This document shows positions 8,907-24,000 of a stretch of 24,000 nt of DNA, piece by piece. The stretch covers positions 68,935-92,934 of the forward strand of contig JAAFIS010000002.1 in NCBI GenBank assembly GCA_013298695.1, read 5' to 3'. The position numbers and the translations under genes were made by a program. The stretch comes from Betaproteobacteria bacterium (GTDB lineage: Bacteria > Pseudomonadota > Gammaproteobacteria > Burkholderiales > Casimicrobiaceae). Numbering within the stretch: the first letter of the stretch is position 1; each line of letters opens with the position of its first letter. The notes beneath the pieces were generated by a model. That model was not told where the DNA came from. It saw only the letters and a program-made list of their open reading frames with translations, and did no database searches.

Positions 8907-9119
8907 TGTAGGAGCGGCTCTGCTGCGATCGCTTGCGCTCCTCCCCCTTCAAGGGGAAGTTTGGGAGAGGGATGGGTTTCGGTATCGCTCACACCATGGA
9001 AAACCATCTCGACTCTCGCCGTCTTGCAGACCACGCTCGCGCCTGCATGCGCTCCCCGTTTCGGCGGCGGACCACATGCGATCCGAAACCCCGCCTACAC
9101 CCCCTTGAAGGGGAGGGAG
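8907..9119. repeat. Composite REP/MITE-like element: R1 mini-copy (TGTAGGAGCGG...) fused to a long R2 variant
   Basis: tgtaggagcggctctgctgcgat matches the R1 termini at 17659/17759. Next comes hairpin cctccccc-ttcaa-ggggaag. The arms gggtttcggtatcgc (8974-8988) and gcgatccgaaacccc (9078-9092) enclose about 89 nt. The element ends with ccccttgaaggggaggg. Confidence 0.8.
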
Positions 9120-13627: not shown

Positions 13628-13728
13628 CATCCCACCCCTCACGCGGGAGGTTTGGATGGGGATGGGTTTCGATTTAGCTTTTCAATCGACACCCATCCCC
13701 ACCCTAGCCCTCCCCTTGAAGGGGAGGG
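13628..13728. repeat. R2 REP/MITE-like element in the creC-creD spacer
   Basis: ggggatgggtttc...acccatcccc inverted repeat, followed by the perfect palindrome ccctccccttgaaggggaggg (13708-13728). The same modules occur at 8938-9119 and 22640-22744. Confidence 0.8.
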
Positions 13729-13750
13729 AACAGCGTTCGAGGGTTGAACA

Positions 13751-15861: not shown

Positions 15862-16107
15862 TTCGACAAGCTCACCACGAACGGCAGTGGGGGTGAGCGC
15901 AGCCTTTAGTCCCGTGCTTGACACGGGATCACCACGAACGGCAGTGGGGGTGAGCGCAGCCTTTAGTCCGGTGTCCTGAGCACGACGAAGGAACACGGGA
16001 TCACCACGAACGGCAGTGGGGGTGAGCGTAGTCTTTAGTTCCGTGTCCTCAGCACGACGAAGGAACACGGGGTCGCCCTGAGCGGTGACGAGAGACAGCG
16101 GTGCTGA
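15862..16107. repeat. Tandem array of R4 REP-like units between the CsgG-like gene and creB
   Basis: The 41-nt core tcaccacgaacggcagtgggggtgagcgcagcctttagtcc occurs at 15872, 15929 and 16001 (third copy slightly diverged). Each copy is followed by a hairpin: cccgtg/cacggg, or ccgtgtcct...aggaacacgg. The leader ttcgacaagctcaccacgaacgg matches 16975-16997 at 21/23. Confidence 0.85.
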
Positions 16108-16867: not shown

Positions 16868-16920
16868 AATTCCGAGTACGATTGCTGCAATTGTCTCCGT
16901 TCGTGGTGAAGACGTCTATG

Positions 16921-17000
16921 CTGAGTTTGTCGAAGCATCGAACCCTGAACGATCTGTCTAATTTGTGTTCATCCTTCGACAAGCTCAGGACGAACGGGAG
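16921..17000. repeat. R4 REP-like inverted pair in the divergent CsgG-like/GST spacer
   Basis: ctgagtttgtcgaag (16921-16935) pairs with cttcgacaagctcag (16974-16988) at 14/15 complementarity with a 38-nt spacer. It continues as gacgaacgg. Confidence 0.7.
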
Positions 17001-17658: not shown

Positions 17659-17759
17659 TGTAGGAGCGGTTCTTCCGCGATACGACTGCTGCGTTACGCC
17701 AATGGGTCAATGAACGTCGGCGTTTGCATAGGTGGAATCGCGGCAGAGCCGCTCCTACA
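17659..17759. repeat. R1 MITE/REP-like element with 23-bp terminal inverted repeats
   Basis: tgtaggagcggttcttccgcgat ... atcgcggcagagccgctcctaca (21/23 complementary) flank about 55 nt. It begins 10 nt after the GST stop codon. Confidence 0.85.
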
Positions 17760-17966: not shown

Positions 17967-18860
17967 ATGAATTCCGTCGCCGAAAAATCCGCACTACTTC
18001 CCGCGCTCGAACAACCGTATCTCGATCTGCTCGCGCACGTGCGCACGCAAGGTGCGCAGAAGGGCGACCGCACTGGCACGGGCACGCTCTCAACCTTCGG
18101 AGCACAGTTGCGTTTTGATTTGCAACGCGGCTTTCCACTCATCACTACGAAGAAAGTGTTTTGGAAAGCGATCGCCTACGAATTGCTTTGGTTTTTGCGC
18201 GGCGATAGCAACGCGAAATGGCTGCAAGAACGCGGCGTCACCATTTGGGATGAATGGGCGAAGGCTGATGGCGATTTGGGGCCGGTGTATGGCGTGCAAT
18301 GGCGGAGCTGGCCGACCCCCGACGGCGGCCACGTCGATCAAATCGCCGAAGTCGTCAAACAGCTCAAAACCAATCCCAATTCGCGCCGCATCATCGTGTC
18401 CGCCTGGAACGTAAGCGAGCTATCGAAGATGGCGCTGATGCCCTGCCATGCGTTTTTTCAGTTCTACGTTTCTCCCTCTCCGTCCGGGAGAGGTCGCGAC
18501 GAAGTCGCGGGTGAGGGAAATTCGCTGCAAAAAGCAAAGCTCTCCTGCCAACTCTACCAACGCAGCGCCGACCTCTTCCTAGGCGTCCCATTCAACATCG
18601 CAAGCTACGCCCTGCTCACCCACATGCTCGCGCAGCAATGCGATCTCGACGTCGGCGACTTCATCTGGACCGGCGGCGATTGCCACATCTATTCGAACCA
18701 CTTCGAACAAGTCGATCTGCAACTTTCACGTTCACCGCTGCCACCCCCGACACTCAACATCAAACGGAAACCAGCGTCGATCCTCGATTATAAGTATGAG
18801 GATTTTGAGGTGGTGAACTACCAGTCGCATGCGGCGATTAAGGCGCCGGTGGCGGTGTAG
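17967..18860 (+). CDS. thyA: Thymidylate synthase ThyA (carries a 19-aa net insertion)
   Basis: Collinear with E. coli ThyA: [61 protein letters not shown]. 297 aa against 264 aa for the E. coli protein as I recall it. Confidence 0.95.
18471..18520. repeat. R3 palindromic element inside the thyA coding sequence
   Basis: Hairpins cctctcc-gtccg-ggagagg (18475-18493) and cgcgac-gaa-gtcgcg (18495-18509). Inverted tccctc (18473-18478) pairs with gaggga (18513-18518). The same motif set occurs in reverse orientation at 19647-19703. Confidence 0.75.
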
Positions 18861-18868
18861 GCGTTGCA

Positions 18869-19204
18869 GTGGTTGATCTTGACATCAAATCAGTGATAGC
18901 TAGCGTCAAAGAAATTTTGAACGATGCCGAACTGCGATCCGTTGAAATCAAAAATCACGCGGACCTCGGTCACGCTGAAAGCGGTGCCGCATTTTTTATC
19001 GAGGGCACATATTGTCTTACTTCAATTGGTATCTGGCCTCACGGCCTGTGTGATGTCGACTGGCTCTATATGTCGGACGCAAAAGGCGAATTCACTCACA
19101 AAGAATTCTTCGACACAAATGAAGTTGCACCGTTCGTGGCGTCTGAAATTCGAAAAGCGTTTGGACGAGAGCGTATCCAAATGCTTGCATATGGTTTCCA
19201 TTGA
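18869..19204 (+). CDS. Hypothetical 111-aa protein (visibly lower GC than neighbours)
   Basis: GTG start 8 nt after the thyA stop. The composition is non-repetitive. No motif is recognised, and it is not DHFR-like. Confidence 0.55.
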   Translation: MVDLDIKSVIASVKEILNDAELRSVEIKNHADLGHAESGAAFFIEGTYCLTSIGIWPHGLCDVDWLYMSDAKGEFTHKEFFDTNEVAPFVASEIRKAFGRERIQMLAYGFH

Positions 19205-19324: not shown

Positions 19325-22015
19325 ATGCGTTTGCCTCGTTCCGAACTTGCTGAATCATTTTTCGCCTCGCGAGGTTGGACGCCGTTCGAATTTCAACGCG
19401 AAACCTGGGCGGCGCAGGCTCAGGGCAAGAGCGGATTGATTCATGCGCCGACGGGGTTTGGTAAGACGTATGCGGCGTTTTGTGGGTTGATTCCCCTCTC
19501 CCCCCGGGACCAGCCGAAGGCGCAGGACGCAGCGAAGCTGTGGTCCCGACCAACGGAAGGGATGGGCGAGAGCCCACAGAGGGTGCCCAAAGGGCGGGTG
19601 AGGGAAAGCGCTGTCGAAAACGAACTCGCTAAACCCGACTTCAAAGCTTCCCTCACCAACGCGCCGCAAGCGTCGCGCGACCTCTCCCGAGGGGAGAGGG
19701 AAGCCAGCACACCCCTCACCGTGCTCTGGATCACCCCGCTAAAAGCCCTAGCGAGCGACACTTTCTTGACGCTCAAAGAGGCCACCGCCGCGATGCAGTC
19801 TTCGTGGACTGTAGGGCTTCGCTCAGGGGATACGTCAACCTCCGAGCGAGCGAAACAGGATCGTCGATTGCCAACTGTGCTGGTGACCACGCCAGAATCG
19901 CTCGCGCTCATGCTGACGAAAGCGGATTGGAGGGAGCGTTTCTCGTCACTTCGCGCCGTGATCGTGGATGAATGGCATGAGTTGCTTTCGTCAAAACGTG
20001 GCGTATTACTTGAACTCACCCTCGCACGCTTACGCAACGCAACGCGCGCGAGCAATGCGCCGTTGATGACCTGGGGCATGAGCGCCACACTCGGCAACCT
20101 TGATGAGGCGATGCGAGTGTTGATCGGCCCCGATGCGGCGATGGAAAAACGCGGCGTGCTCATCAGCGCAGACGTTAAAAAAGACATCGTGATCGATTCG
20201 CTGCTGCCAGATTCGATGGAGCGCTTTCCGTGGGCGGGGCATTTGGGTACGAAGATGGTGCCGAAGGTCATCGAGAAAATTAACGCAGCGAAGAGCACGC
20301 TCATCTTCACCAACACACGTTCGCAAACCGAGCTTTGGTATCAGGCAATTTTGGATGCGGCACCCGAGCTTGCGGGGCAAATCGCATTGCATCATGGCTC
20401 ACTCGACAGAGACACGCGCGACTTCGTTGAACAAGGTATTCGCACGGGCTTACTCAAAGCAGTGGTGTGCACGAGTTCGTTGGATCTGGGTGTTGACTTT
20501 CGCCCCGTAGAACAAGTGCTGCAAATTGGTTCTCCAAAGGGCGTTGCGCGACTGTTGCAGCGCGCGGGGCGCAGCGGGCATCAGCCAGGCGCGAAATCGC
20601 GCGTCACGGTCGTGCCGACGCACGCTCTGGAGCTGGTTGAATCCGCCGCGGCTCGAACGGCCGCGATGGCAGGACGGATTGAAACGCGACGACCACTCGG
20701 AACACTGAATGTGGCGGGGGCAACGAGAGGCACCTGGCGCGCGCTTGACGTGCTCGCGCAACACTTGGTGAGCGCAGCGCTCGGCGGCGGCTTCGATCCC
20801 GATGCGATGCGCGAGGAAGTGGAACGCACAGCAAGCTTCATGAATTTGACCGATGAAGAATGGCAATGGACGCTTGATTTCGTCACCAAAGGCGGCGCGT
20901 CGCTTTCCGCCTATCCTGACTTTCACAAAGTGATTTGGGATGAAGAAACAAAGCGCTATGTTGTGAATGATCGACGCATCGCGCAGCGACATCGCATCAA
21001 CATCGGCACCATCGTTTCCGAAGCGTCGATCAACGTGCAATACCAAGGCGGCGCACGATTGGGGCATGTCGAAGAAGATTTCATCGCACGACTGAATCCT
21101 GGTGATGCATTTATCTTCGCCGGACGTATTGTTGAATTCATCCGCGTTCGCGAGATGACCGCATACGTGAAACGCGCAACGAAGAAGCGCAACCTCGTGC
21201 CGCGTTGGGCGGGTGGCAAGATGCCACTTTCAACGCAGCTTGCAGACGCAACGCGCGCGCTGATCGCCGAGGCGAAACGTGGTGTGTATTCAACGCCAGA
21301 AACACGGCTTTGCGCACCGATTTTCACCCTACAAAACGCGATATCCGCGTTGCCAAGCGAGAAGCAATTCCTGATTGAAACGTACAAGGATCGCGAAGGT
21401 TGGCACCTGTTTTTCTTCCCGTTCGAAGGAAGATTAGTTCATCTTGGACTCGCCACACTCTTTAGCTATCGGCTCGCAAAAGACGAAGCAAAAACGTTTT
21501 CGATTGCGATGAATGATTATGGTTTTGAACTCGTGTCGCCCACGGAACAAATACTAACGAACAAAAAGTTGCACGAACTGCTAGACACGAGAAATGTTGA
21601 AGCAGACATCTTGCACGGGCTCAACGCAGCTGAGCTAGCGAAGCGCCAGTTTCGCGAGATCGCCCGCGTCGCTGGGCTCATCGATCAAGGCTATCCCGGA
21701 CAAAACAAATCGAACAAACAATTGCAAATGAGTAGCGGCCTGCTCTTCGACGTGTTCACCAACTACGACAAAGACAACTTGCTGCTCAAGCAAGCGGTGC
21801 GCGAGGTAATGGAGCGACAGCTTGAAGCCACGCGTTTGCAAGCGGCGTTGCTGCGGCTGCGCGCGAGCGAGGCGCTGCTCAAACATTGTGATCGCTTCAC
21901 ACCGTTTTCATTTCCGCTCATGGTGGAGCGGTTGCGCGAAAAGTTATCGACAGAACAGATTGAAGATCGTGTAGCGCGGATGGTCGCCGAGATTGAAAAA
22001 GCGCAGTTGGCGTGA
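19325..22015 (+). CDS. Ligase-associated-type DEXH-box (Lhr-core-like) DNA damage response helicase
   Basis: Motif I APTGFGKT, Ia LWITPLKALA, II VIVDEWH (DExH), III MSATLGN, VI QRAGRSGH. The C-terminal region (DVLAQHLV..., INIGTIVSE...) is typical of this family. I chose the ATG at 19325 because 19208-19324 is REP sequence. Confidence 0.88.
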   Translation: MRLPRSELAESFFASRGWTPFEFQRETWAAQAQGKSGLIHAPTGFGKTYAAFCGLIPLSPRDQPKAQDAAKLWSRPTEGMGESPQRVPKGRVRESAVENELAKPDFKASLTNAPQASRDLSRGEREASTPLTVLWITPLKALASDTFLTLKEATAAMQSSWTVGLRSGDTSTSERAKQDRRLPTVLVTTPESLALMLTKADWRERFSSLRAVIVDEWHELLSSKRGVLLELTLARLRNATRASNAPLMTWGMSATLGNLDEAMRVLIGPDAAMEKRGVLISADVKKDIVIDSLLPDSMERFPWAGHLGTKMVPKVIEKINAAKSTLIFTNTRSQTELWYQAILDAAPELAGQIALHHGSLDRDTRDFVEQGIRTGLLKAVVCTSSLDLGVDFRPVEQVLQIGSPKGVARLLQRAGRSGHQPGAKSRVTVVPTHALELVESAAARTAAMAGRIETRRPLGTLNVAGATRGTWRALDVLAQHLVSAALGGGFDPDAMREEVERTASFMNLTDEEWQWTLDFVTKGGASLSAYPDFHKVIWDEETKRYVVNDRRIAQRHRINIGTIVSEASINVQYQGGARLGHVEEDFIARLNPGDAFIFAGRIVEFIRVREMTAYVKRATKKRNLVPRWAGGKMPLSTQLADATRALIAEAKRGVYSTPETRLCAPIFTLQNAISALPSEKQFLIETYKDREGWHLFFFPFEGRLVHLGLATLFSYRLAKDEAKTFSIAMNDYGFELVSPTEQILTNKKLHELLDTRNVEADILHGLNAAELAKRQFREIARVAGLIDQGYPGQNKSNKQLQMSSGLLFDVFTNYDKDNLLLKQAVREVMERQLEATRLQAALLRLRASEALLKHCDRFTPFSFPLMVERLREKLSTEQIEDRVARMVAEIEKAQLA
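19491..19607. repeat. Long R3-related element inside the helicase coding sequence
   Basis: It starts ttcccctctcc and ends gggtgagggaaa, the same termini as the thyA copy. Internal 8-bp stem: cgggacca (19505-19512) pairs with tggtcccg (19541-19548). Confidence 0.6.
19647..19703. repeat. Short R3 element (inverted orientation) inside the helicase coding sequence
   Basis: Outer 8-bp stem cttccctc (19647-19654) / gagggaag (19696-19703). Inner hairpin cctctccc-gag-gggagagg. Its reverse complement aligns with the thyA copy (tccctctcc...cgggagaggtcgcg...ggtgagggaa). Confidence 0.75.
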
Positions 22016-22604: not shown

Positions 22605-22618
22605 GATGATCTACGACT

Positions 22619-22744
22619 TGTAGGAGCGCTGCGATTCGTCTCCTCCCCCTTCAAGGGGGAGGCCGGGAGCGGGATGGGTTTCAGCGGCGTTGGAAGCGAG
22701 GGAAACCCATCCCCACCCCAACCCTCCCCTTGAAGGGGAGGGAG
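22619..22744. repeat. Composite R1-mini + R2 element filling the whole glcF-thioesterase spacer
   Basis: tgtaggagcg..., then hairpin cctccccc-ttcaa-gggggagg. Next, gggatgggtttc...gaaacccatccc, and finally the palindrome ccctccccttgaaggggaggg (22722-22742). It ends 2 nt before the glcF stop codon and starts 14 nt from the thioesterase ATG. Confidence 0.85.
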
Positions 22745-23965
22745 TCAACTGAGTCGTTCGTCAAGCAACTCAATCCAATGCTTCACCGGAAGTGTAGTCC
22801 CGCTTTGTAAATGTGTCATGCATCCGATGTTGGACGTCGCGATTTGGCTCGGCTCGCCTGCAGTAAGAGTCTTGAGTTTTCTGGTTTTGAGCTCTTCGCT
22901 GATCGTGGGCTGCAATACCGAATAGGTGCCCGCCGAGCCGCAGCACAAGTGCGAATCGGCAACCGCGGCGAGGGTGAATCCCATATCGCGCAGCAATTGC
23001 TCTACGCCACCTTTGAGTTTCATACCGTGCTGCAAGGTGCATGGCGGGTGGTACGAAATCGTTTCATGGCGCGGTTTTACTTTCGCTTTGAGCGATGGCC
23101 ATTCCGCGGCAATCACTTCTGAAATATCCTTCGAGATCGAAGCGATCCTCGCCGCCTTTGCCGCATATACCGCGTCCTGCTGCATAAAGTGACCGTAGTC
23201 TTTGAGCATGACCGAACAGCCTGAAGCGGTGCCAACGACGGCCTCCGCACCCGCTTCGATATGCGGCCACCACGCATCAATGTTCGCTTTCACTCTTTGC
23301 ACCGCTTCGTCATGCGCGTTCAAGTGGTGCGAGAGCGCGCCGCAACAGCCGCCTGCGGAAATCGCCTTGAGCGTGATCCCCGCGTGATCGAGCACGCGCG
23401 CAGCGGCGAAATCAATCGAGGGAGCCATCGAATTTTGCACACAGCTATCCAGCAACAGCACGGTACGCGCATGCTGCGTTTGTGGCCACGCACCAGCGTC
23501 GCGCATGGGTTGCACTTTCGCTTTGAGCGCCGCAGGCATCAGCGGACGCAGCGCGCGACCGAGCTTCATCGCGTTATGAAATAGCGGCTTGTTGAGCAAG
23601 CTTTTGCGCAAACTGGTTCTCGCCAGCTTCTCAGTGAACGTACGACCGACTTTTTCCTCAACGACGCTGCGACCGATATCCACTAGCCGACCATATTGCA
23701 CACCACTAGGGCAGGTACTTTCGCAATTGCGACAAGTCAAGCAGCGATCCAAATGCTGCTGCGTTTTCTTGGTCGGCTCAACGCCTTCTAGCACCTGCTT
23801 GATGAGATAGATGCGACCACGCGGCCCATCGAGTTCGTCACCGAGCACCTGATACGTCGGGCAGGTCGCTGTGCAAAACCCACAATGAACGCAGGAGCGC
23901 AAAATCGCATCGGCTTCTTTGCCCTGCGGGGTGTCTTTGATGAAGTCGGCTAGGTTGGTTTGCAT
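22745..23965 (-). CDS. glcF: Glycolate oxidase iron-sulfur subunit GlcF
   Basis: Two 4Fe-4S cluster motifs (CVHCGFCTATCP, CLTCRNCESTCP) and CCG-domain cysteines. Near full-length resemblance to E. coli GlcF (DELDGPRGRIYLIKQVLEG). Confidence 0.9.
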   Translation of the reverse strand: MQTNLADFIKDTPQGKEADAILRSCVHCGFCTATCPTYQVLGDELDGPRGRIYLIKQVLEGVEPTKKTQQHLDRCLTCRNCESTCPSGVQYGRLVDIGRSVVEEKVGRTFTEKLARTSLRKSLLNKPLFHNAMKLGRALRPLMPAALKAKVQPMRDAGAWPQTQHARTVLLLDSCVQNSMAPSIDFAAARVLDHAGITLKAISAGGCCGALSHHLNAHDEAVQRVKANIDAWWPHIEAGAEAVVGTASGCSVMLKDYGHFMQQDAVYAAKAARIASISKDISEVIAAEWPSLKAKVKPRHETISYHPPCTLQHGMKLKGGVEQLLRDMGFTLAAVADSHLCCGSAGTYSVLQPTISEELKTRKLKTLTAGEPSQIATSNIGCMTHLQSGTTLPVKHWIELLDERLS

Positions 23966-24000
23966 AGTTGCGCCTAACGCGCGATCGCTAACCCTCTCCC

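Follow-up and report, generated by a model that had tools for sequence, protein, structure and literature searches.

Among the short multicopy repeats of Proteobacteria, the G/C-rich "intrastrand triplex motif" TM_ECO, earlier named BoxC and PIT (Holder et al., 2015, PMC4666352), is the closest described counterpart of an element that is reported here from within the thymidylate synthase (TS) gene thyA of a betaproteobacterium (Betaproteobacteria bacterium, contig JAAFIS010000002.1; the whole 24,000-nt stretch that was analysed is referred to as the window). TM_ECO follows the published pattern CCCTCNCCC-N3-6-GGGNGAGGG-N3-GGGNGAGGG and is present with 3610 copies across 262 proteobacterial genomes (PMC4666352). 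E. coli K-12 has 23 of these units, which are reported to be "always intergenic" and often form inverted pairs, a link to transposons is lacking, the surroundings are unusually rearranged among E. coli strains, and PIT elements display neither promoter nor terminator activity in E. coli (PMC4666352). The mobility of BoxC/triplex-motif repeats has been a question since their description in the 1990s. Earlier work on these repeats is reportedly that of Hoyne and Maher from 2000 to 2002.

Translated repeats are known from other families. Rickettsia palindromic elements (RPEs; Ogata et al., 2000), as far as the summaries in PMC10969869 and PMC3733652 describe them, lie in frame in housekeeping genes and are read through, at positions thought to be compatible with the protein fold, and occur within as well as between genes. 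Repetitive extragenic palindromic sequences (REPs) with GTAG or CGTC tags are also found intragenically, as short singlets and dimers encoding 7-30 residues in known proteins (Di Nocera, De Gregorio and Rocco, 2013, PMC3733652). The hosts are uvrA, uvrB, hrpA and others, with many replication and repair enzymes including helicases among them; thyA is not listed (PMC3733652). Hence, when an earlier note on this DNA, made from the letters alone, stated that in-frame palindromes are known from Rickettsia but unusual in a core enzyme, the precedent was correctly named, whereas "unusual" was an overstatement in view of uvrA, uvrB and hrpA. That in-frame repeats are tolerated in essential genes was thus known; new at the present locus are the repeat class involved, a variant with a hairpin in the second loop, and hotspots in thyA and lhr that bear many alleles from several repeat families.

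The repeats of the window and of the loci of related genomes (in the following, the clade) share with BoxC/PIT/TM_ECO the three blocks CCCTCTCC(C) / GGGAGAGG(G) / GGGTGAGGG, that is, a C-rich block, a complementary purine block and a third block capable of forming triads by the logic G*G:C, T*A:T and A*A:T. Common to both are also dispersed copies with frequent inverted pairs, occurrence in many Proteobacteria, the lack of a known transposase and loci that vary between close strains. In contrast to the 3-nt second loop of the published pattern, however, the clade has a GC hairpin of 14-22 nt at this position as well as a second block variant, type B (CCTCCCC / GGGGAGG / GGTGGGG...GATGG), and while the E. 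coli copies are described as always intergenic, copies of the clade are found inside the reading frames of thyA and an Lhr-type helicase gene and, in related metagenome-assembled genomes, inside those of acyl-CoA dehydrogenase and ABC-F ATPase genes. The thyA copy itself shows neither the 3-nt second loop nor the intergenic location. With RPEs, the thyA insert has in common that it lies in frame in a functional gene and at a seemingly permissive place, with an open frame, a low ratio of nonsynonymous to synonymous substitution rates in the flanking core (dN/dS 0.03-0.07) and a position between predicted strands. This likeness is one of behaviour alone and implies no membership of the sequence families RPE-1 to RPE-10; the host lineage, a betaproteobacterium, and the unit size differ. 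Going by the same summaries, RPEs measure about 100-150 bp, are confined to Rickettsia and represent a single stable insertion per site, whereas the thyA-type units of 40-60 nt belong to a cross-phylum family and at least seven states of the thyA codon can be told apart in ten close relatives. Intragenic REPs are likewise short units translated inside known proteins, helicases included (PMC3733652), but are distinguished by their tags: neither GTAG nor CGTC was found at the ends of 18 aligned thyA-type units, the CGTC at 18481-84 being part of the hairpin-1 loop and not conserved. Intergenic inverted doublets, vertical inheritance and coexistence of singlets and doublets are reminiscent of the system of REP doublets forming hairpins and REP-associated tyrosine transposases (REPIN-RAYT; Bertels and Rainey, 2011, PMC3116915); the thyA copy, however, is a singlet, and its blocks follow a triplex-motif logic that REPINs do not require.

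A triplex-motif unit in the thyA reading frame

The window protein, identical to P0001 in NCBI and belonging to a protein cluster with 4 member sequences, is 64% identical to E. coli ThyA (BLASTP with window 17967-18857, E 4e-141), and Pfam PF00303 was found on every ThyA homologue retrieved. In agreement with the earlier note, both proteins are collinear apart from one exchange of 22 residues for the three of the A-D-G turn, visible as a single 19-residue gap in E. coli ThyA directly after FYV; this confirms the claimed net gain of 19 aa or 57 nt, and the reading frame indeed stays open through the insert to give an ORF of 297 residues. Residues of the catalytic center, among them C160, H161, R199, S200, D202, N210, H240, Y242 and R140/R141, are invariant in the alignment of ThyA homologues.

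Judged by its sequence, the insert is a BoxC/PIT/TM_ECO unit in which a 6-bp hairpin replaces the 3-nt second loop, that is, a structural variant of the family that departs from the strict pattern. This hairpin 2 lies within a second loop of 16 nt (18494-18509). The core of the third block, GGTGAGG (18511-17), is triad-compatible with GGAGAGG in antiparallel orientation at 7 of 7 positions (G*G, T*A, A*A), which was equaled by 2 of 200 shuffles. As DNA, the 51-nt element folds into two neighbouring hairpins (-13.5 kcal/mol, z -3.05, equaled by 1 of 200 shuffles) and, as RNA, reaches -23.2 kcal/mol (z -2.2), while a broader stretch of 86 nt folds less strikingly (z -1.7). Accordingly, the palindromes that had been described as nested are real, but the two inner ones stand side by side; the flanking pair tccctc/gaggga can be formed as well, although in competition with hairpin 1, and is more fittingly interpreted as representing block three of the triplex motif. 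In vivo, the element may adopt an intrastrand hairpin or triplex when single-stranded. Units of type A, type B and E. coli are free of stop codons in five of the six reading frames.

For searching further copies, a covariance model (R1) was built from an alignment of 18 units from the window, relatives and a few representatives of other phyla. In this alignment, both hairpins are paired in 98.3% of the cells with compensatory changes in five pairs, and hairpin 1 alone is paired in 97.9% of the cells across the 18 members, likewise with compensatory changes. R1 retrieves two BoxC/TM_ECO units in the hrpB-mrcB spacer of E. coli K-12 (E 6e-10 and 6e-8), aligning hairpin 2 as missing; these are numbers 1 and 2 in Table 1 of PMC4666352. 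In the RefSeq annotation of this region (NC_000913.3, 164300-164900; L109), the pair is not marked by a repeat feature. The features of the thyA locus and the other copies in the window are compiled in Table 1.

Table 1. Features of thyA, its insert and related repeat units in the 24-kb window.
Feature	Position	Strand	Evidence
thyA coding sequence (297 aa + stop)	17967..18860	+	BLASTP vs E. coli ThyA, Pfam PF00303, identical NCBI protein P0001
22 codons in place of 3-codon A-D-G turn, net +57 nt; residues 169-190	18471..18536	+	alignment to E. coli ThyA, alleles of relatives
Core repeat unit, type A triplex-motif element	18471..18521	+	R1, 60.7 bits, E 6e-14
Hairpin 1: pyrimidine block CCTCTCC (18475-81), loop GTCCG, purine block GGAGAGG (18487-93)	18475..18493	+	pairing, folding
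Hairpin 2: CGCGAC (18495-18500)-GAA-GTCGCG (18504-09)	18495..18509	+	pairing, folding; not in R1-aligned E. coli copies
Third block GGTGAGGGAA	18510..18519	+	triad scoring
Lhr-type DEXH helicase gene	19325..22015	+	DEAD, Helicase_C, WHD_Lhr and DEAD_assoc in orthologues
Further type A unit inside the helicase frame, split by ~68-nt nested insert	19491..19607	+	R1, 22 bits, E 1e-3, model positions 1-49 over 117 nt
Inverted type A unit, in frame in helicase; forms long hairpin with 19491-19607	19646..19703	-	R1, 51.5 bits, E 2e-11
Intergenic type B unit	8937..8975	+	R1, 17.5 bits, E 0.015; further hairpin at 9098-9116
Intergenic inverted doublet, type B (CCTCCCC / GGGGAGG / GGGTGGG...GGGGATGGG)	13635..13731	.	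inverted-repeat search; R1 at 13691-13731, 33.7 bits
Intergenic inverted doublet, type B, between thioesterase and Fer4/CCG genes	22639..22745	.	inverted-repeat search; R1 at 22639-22677 and 22705-22745; position retained in L081 and L104

Allelic diversity at the thyA turn

The turn was compared between the window and nine relatives with the syntenic order GST-thyA-...-helicase (GST, glutathione S-transferase), which gives ten alleles in all. In these relatives, whose thyA cores are 83-94% identical, the turn shows presence/absence polymorphism and differs in nearly every genome. L083 is empty (GTG GCG CAC GGC AAG CTC, encoding V-A-H-G-K), the window and L100 have a type A singlet, and L081 and L104 a type B singlet. 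Composite alleles are found in L103 (A + truncated B + B), L105 (truncated B + B), L106 (A + degenerate A) and L107 (B + inverted B, adding 47 residues), whereas L108 carries an unrelated "type C" repeat (CTCATCCTGAGCTTGTCGAAGGATC) that encodes the peptide AHPELVEGS. L100 is a metagenome-assembled genome (MAG) of independent assembly, with the same type A element at the same thyA codon. All filled alleles agree in the strand of their first unit, which begins right after the Val codon. Among ThyA homologues at 74-94% identity, the length ranges from 275 to 336 residues and varies at the hairpin turn alone. Hence, the thyA turn is a hotspot at which different repeat families and arrays are present in close relatives.

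The empty state can be taken as ancestral because outgroup ThyAs read VADGK at the turn; in the alignment with orthologues, which the earlier note had proposed as a check, the insert is absent from the syntenic relative L083 and from the outgroups. Several observations bear on how the filled states came about. Alleles and cores do not match: at 94% core identity, L106 holds A + degenerate A and L108 holds C, and at 91% core identity, a type A singlet in L100 contrasts with B units in L105. Moreover, two kinds of type A alleles exist, one having 2 nt more before hairpin 1 and one base pair less in hairpin 2, so that hairpin 1 is read in different frames (SPSPSGRG... versus SPPLPLGE...); as these indels compensate each other, single-step intermediates would be frameshifts. 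Finally, the "truncated B + B" array is also present as an intergenic unit in L106. Taken together, mismatch, frame offset and intergenic counterpart are better explained by several arrivals, or by replacements in one step, than by drift in place alone.

As negative control, ThyAs of other Burkholderiales (L001-L080), being the matches listed from a metagenome scan at 70-77% identity, were inspected. None of these listed relatives has a repeat insert. Instead, 58 of 78 show a fixed loop of +7 aa at the turn (VAPxxxPGGKGK-like) and 20 have no extension (VADGK/VAEGR), indicating that an extended turn is naturally tolerated. An interpretation of the +7 aa loop as a decayed repeat was discarded in view of its invariant length and the lack of R1 matches. 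Regarding a homologous loop in distant ThyAs that is not palindromic, which would have spoken against a repeat, only these fixed-length loops without R1 match were found.

Helicase linker and other host genes

In the helicase encoded downstream of thyA, motif I (GFGKT) is separated from motif Ia (TPLKAL) by about 75 additional residues. The corresponding DNA starts with a type A unit into which 68 nt are nested, continues with a spacer and ends with a type A unit in inverted orientation; it folds as one long hairpin (19480-19720, z -4.8). In line with the earlier note, which had seen the same motif set in inverted orientation at 19647-19703, positions 18473-18498 of thyA and 19676-19701 of the helicase gene are complementary over 26 nt at 88%, and the helicase unit scores 51.5 bits with R1. 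Among relatives, L092 and L106 have the same composite at this site, L081 and L108 another one, L100 a type B doublet, L083 a single hairpin and L103 an unrelated palindrome. The helicase linker is thus a second hotspot with the same mix of families. The nested insert of the helicase unit (19510-19595, about 68 nt, GGGACCAGCCGAAGGCGCAGGACGCAGCGAAGCTGTGGTCCC...) forms a hairpin of its own and is conserved in L092 and L106.

Two further host genes were found through strict-pattern matches in related betaproteobacterial MAGs, an acyl-CoA dehydrogenase gene with two in-frame triplex-motif doublets (L088, 3069-5114) and an ABC-F ATPase gene with one unit (L094, 3361-5334). The 19 best R1 matches (at least 46 bits), each of which has hairpin 2, are all located in long stretches free of stop codons, these genes included, in a sample that is biased to thyA loci. 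One of these best matches (L101) is probably located upstream of the true start of its gene.

A dispersed repeat family

R1 detects seven copies in the window; in 157 kb of loci from related genomes, about 50 matches are full-length at E<0.01, while no match was obtained in 466 kb flanking thyA on 80 contigs of other Burkholderiales. With the hairpin-1 motif (up to three mismatches), nine matches are found in the window compared to 0.07 expected. The thyA segment is therefore a copy of a dispersed repeat and not native coding sequence. The previous description as a dispersed REP/MITE-like element (MITE, miniature inverted-repeat transposable element) holds for the dispersal but not for the class, as the unit is neither a GTAG-type REP nor a MITE with target-site duplications.

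Two main forms can be distinguished, type A with CCTCTCC and type B with CCTCCCC...GGGGATGG, the latter being common in spacers of the window. In clade loci, a perfect 7/7 triad-compatible third block follows 36 of about 48 pyrimidine/purine hairpins, and this block covaries with the purine block, GGAGAGG occurring with GGTGAGG, GGGGAGG with GGTGGGG or GGAGGGG, and GGGAGGG with GGGTGGG. Most intergenic copies are inverted doublets, some of which keep spacer and type in several relatives (window 22605-22747 and 23966-24000; L081 16522-16691 and 17910-17997; L104 7949-8094 and 9325-9467; L103 10826-10917). Retention at the same spacers despite a synonymous divergence of thyA of dS 0.5-0.95 hints at conservation or homogenisation rather than neutral decay.

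Among representative genomes, to which the source genome does not belong, the strict pattern CCCTCTCCNNNNGGGAGAGGTCGCG gave 18 matches from Chloroflexi and Gamma-, Delta-, Alpha- and Betaproteobacteria, and nearly all of these are followed by a GC hairpin and GGTGAGGG. Rfam gave no match anywhere in the window, and a protein search with a 54-aa concatenate of the repeat-encoded peptide returned no candidates.

Selection and predicted structure

The nine inserts measure 57, 54, 60, 135, 57, 84, 105, 141 and 30 nt, all being multiples of three and free of stop codons, for which the chance would be about 5e-5 if length were free, a figure inflated by ascertainment. The thyA cores show dN/dS values of 0.03-0.07 at dS 0.5-0.95, demonstrating purifying selection on the sequence flanking the inserts. 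Between window and L100, the thyA unit is identical at 48 of 50 positions against a dS of 0.75. The idea that the unit is more conserved than expected under neutrality was nevertheless dropped, as blocks of 45 nt on either side differ at no more than 0-5 positions each and are thus conserved to the same degree.

In an AlphaFold2 model based on a 43-sequence alignment, strands 162-169 and 191-202 flank the insert, and residues 174-186 have values of the predicted local distance difference test (pLDDT) below 50. The model thus agrees with the earlier placement of the insert in a beta-hairpin turn, where it is predicted as a low-confidence loop between two strands; in all likelihood, the insert is translated and remains disordered. 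The loop is probably harmless to the enzyme. Among bacterial TS structures aligned residue by residue from a PDB search, a set without the longer chain 7ta9_A, an insert at this turn was not found. Chain 7ta9_A spans 278 residues, 16 more than the 262 of E. coli TS, and is a possible precedent for an extended loop.

Origin and consequences of the insertions

The most convincing explanation, which we consider probable, is that a BoxC/PIT/TM_ECO repeat sits in the thyA turn and is tolerated as a translated loop at a permissive site that is repeatedly refilled. A short non-coding multicopy repeat of the BoxC/TM type would have been copied into the turn codons of the beta-hairpin and, thanks to a frame-preserving length and the lack of a stop, would be read through as a 22-residue loop, rich in Pro, Gly, Glu and Arg and probably disordered. 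This loop would be well separated, along the strand, from the catalytic Cys160 and may leave the enzyme unharmed. ThyA itself stays under strong purifying selection. In a lineage saturated with repeats, purifying selection might clear all insertions in essential genes but those in frame at permissive loops, which would thus show up as "landing pads". Once filled, such landing pads may be remodelled fast, in keeping with the instability reported for triplex motifs, and the same thyA codon could have been filled, refilled or remodelled many times in close relatives. The diversity at the turn would then mostly stem from repeated insertion or one-step replacement, helped by local instability. Only tentatively can it be suggested, with more doubt than confidence, that the ThyA turn and the Lhr linker between motifs I and Ia are true targets colonised independently by at least three repeat families or, alternatively, sites of exceptionally fast in-frame remodelling driven by triplexes or hairpins.

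Several points weigh against the proposed repeated filling of a permissive site. Mobility is deduced from distribution alone, since no transposase domain was detected among the window ORFs tested and no RAYT was found in the window; likewise, the copy counts refer to the 24-kb window and the loci of relatives. A MITE was considered because TCCCTC...GAGGGA might pass as short terminal inverted repeats, but comparison of the empty allele of L083 with filled alleles reveals no duplicated target. As relatives were drawn from intact database proteins, the observation that all inserts are in frame is in part due to ascertainment. The ThyA model is mediocre (mean pLDDT 76.9, with residues 147-160 also low) and represents the monomer. 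Moreover, recombination between lineages could have shuffled some of the thyA alleles, the cores being about equally distant (83-94%).

Of the rival explanations, a single ancestral insertion from which all diversity arose in place, by slippage, duplication, partial deletion and loss of the hairpin- and triplex-prone DNA at the thyA codon, deserves most attention, yet appears rather unlikely. It would agree with the reported rearrangements of TM_ECO loci among E. coli strains (PMC4666352), with the constant strand and start of the first unit right after the Val codon, and with the hairpin 2 and architecture shared by types A and B, and the L106 allele (A + degenerate A) does resemble a tandem duplication. 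However, the unrelated type C of L108 next to a core 94% identical to that of L106 is not easily derived in place, the offsetting frame-shifting indels between type A alleles would require one-step intermediates with inactive thyA, "truncated B + B" is already found at another, intergenic place, and the helicase linker represents an independent hotspot with the same family mix. A recruitment of the insert for a function, either as an mRNA or DNA structure tuning thyA expression or as a surface peptide under diversifying selection, is improbable considering that close relatives have an empty turn or unrelated sequence there, that the peptide is not conserved and has low pLDDT, and that PIT elements lack promoter and terminator activity in E. 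coli (PMC4666352). Such a role could nevertheless account for orthologous intergenic copies keeping place and type at a thyA dS of 0.5-0.95 and for the stable RNA hairpins (-23 kcal/mol); the 48/50 identity of the thyA unit between window and L100, also in its favour, is matched by the immediate flanks.

By contrast, it is very hard to maintain that the segment is an ordinary native loop of this lineage, palindromic by chance and not a repeat. The turn does vary naturally in length, as is evident from the fixed +7 aa loop of many Burkholderiales, but these loops are invariant in length and have no R1 matches, whereas the same 50-nt unit as in thyA is present in the helicase gene, in intergenic DNA, in the acyl-CoA dehydrogenase and ABC-F ATPase genes of related MAGs and in E. 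coli, and the motif count exceeds expectation by far (9 versus 0.07). Just as improbable is that the segment is missing from the protein, be it an assembly artefact, a pseudogene lesion, an intron or intein, or a stretch skipped by the ribosome, for which only its oddity speaks. GC-rich palindromic inserts are bypassed by ribosomes in yeast mitochondria. In the present case, however, the same insert is found in the independent MAG L100 and the protein cluster has four members, while nine inserts, all multiples of three and stop-free, are accompanied by dN/dS values of 0.03-0.07. Intron, intein and ribosomal bypass were rejected on account of the size (57 nt, far too small for an intein or self-splicing intron), the missing Rfam match and the strict conservation of the frame.

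A repeat class called strictly intergenic in E. coli thus apparently sits, translated, in an essential textbook enzyme and a DNA-repair helicase. Repeats that are short and palindromic are commonly regarded as a matter of intergenic DNA; here, the repeat content of one thyA codon changes from one close relative to almost every other. For protein engineering, it may be useful that a loop of ThyA tolerating 0 to 47 extra residues is marked in this way, while annotators and phylogeneticists should be warned that such loops represent repeat DNA and not homologous characters. If the tentative notion of insertion targets or fast remodelling is true, BoxC/triplex-motif repeats build hypervariable protein loops, and the clade provides, for a gene that can be selected, a set of naturally occurring alleles that could reveal how BoxC repeats move. 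As both positive and negative selections are available for thyA, the mobility of triplex-motif repeats and their reported instability could become directly measurable.

Other repeats and neighbouring genes

GTAG-headed REPs (GTAGGAGCGG...CCGCGA) are present in intergenic DNA of the window, as an inverted doublet just upstream of thyA (17659-17759, 28-nt arms, 86% complementary) and as a singlet at 8907-8929, and form a family separate from the thyA insert. Relatives of type C are located at 15862-16064 and 16920-16989 (16920-16934 and 16975-16989), the former region comprising three tandem copies of a 72-nt unit between response-regulator and CsgG-like genes (15864-16064). "TTCGACAAGCTCAGG" cores of the type C family adjoin the start of the GST gene, and the same family is found reversed in the thyA turn of L108. 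The GST gene upstream of thyA is called at 213-262 aa depending on the relative. The gene content of the spacer between thyA and the helicase gene varies among relatives (DUF465, DUF7684-like, YcxB-like and Rce1-like genes); in the window, thyA is followed by a 111-aa ORF (18869-19204) without Pfam match.

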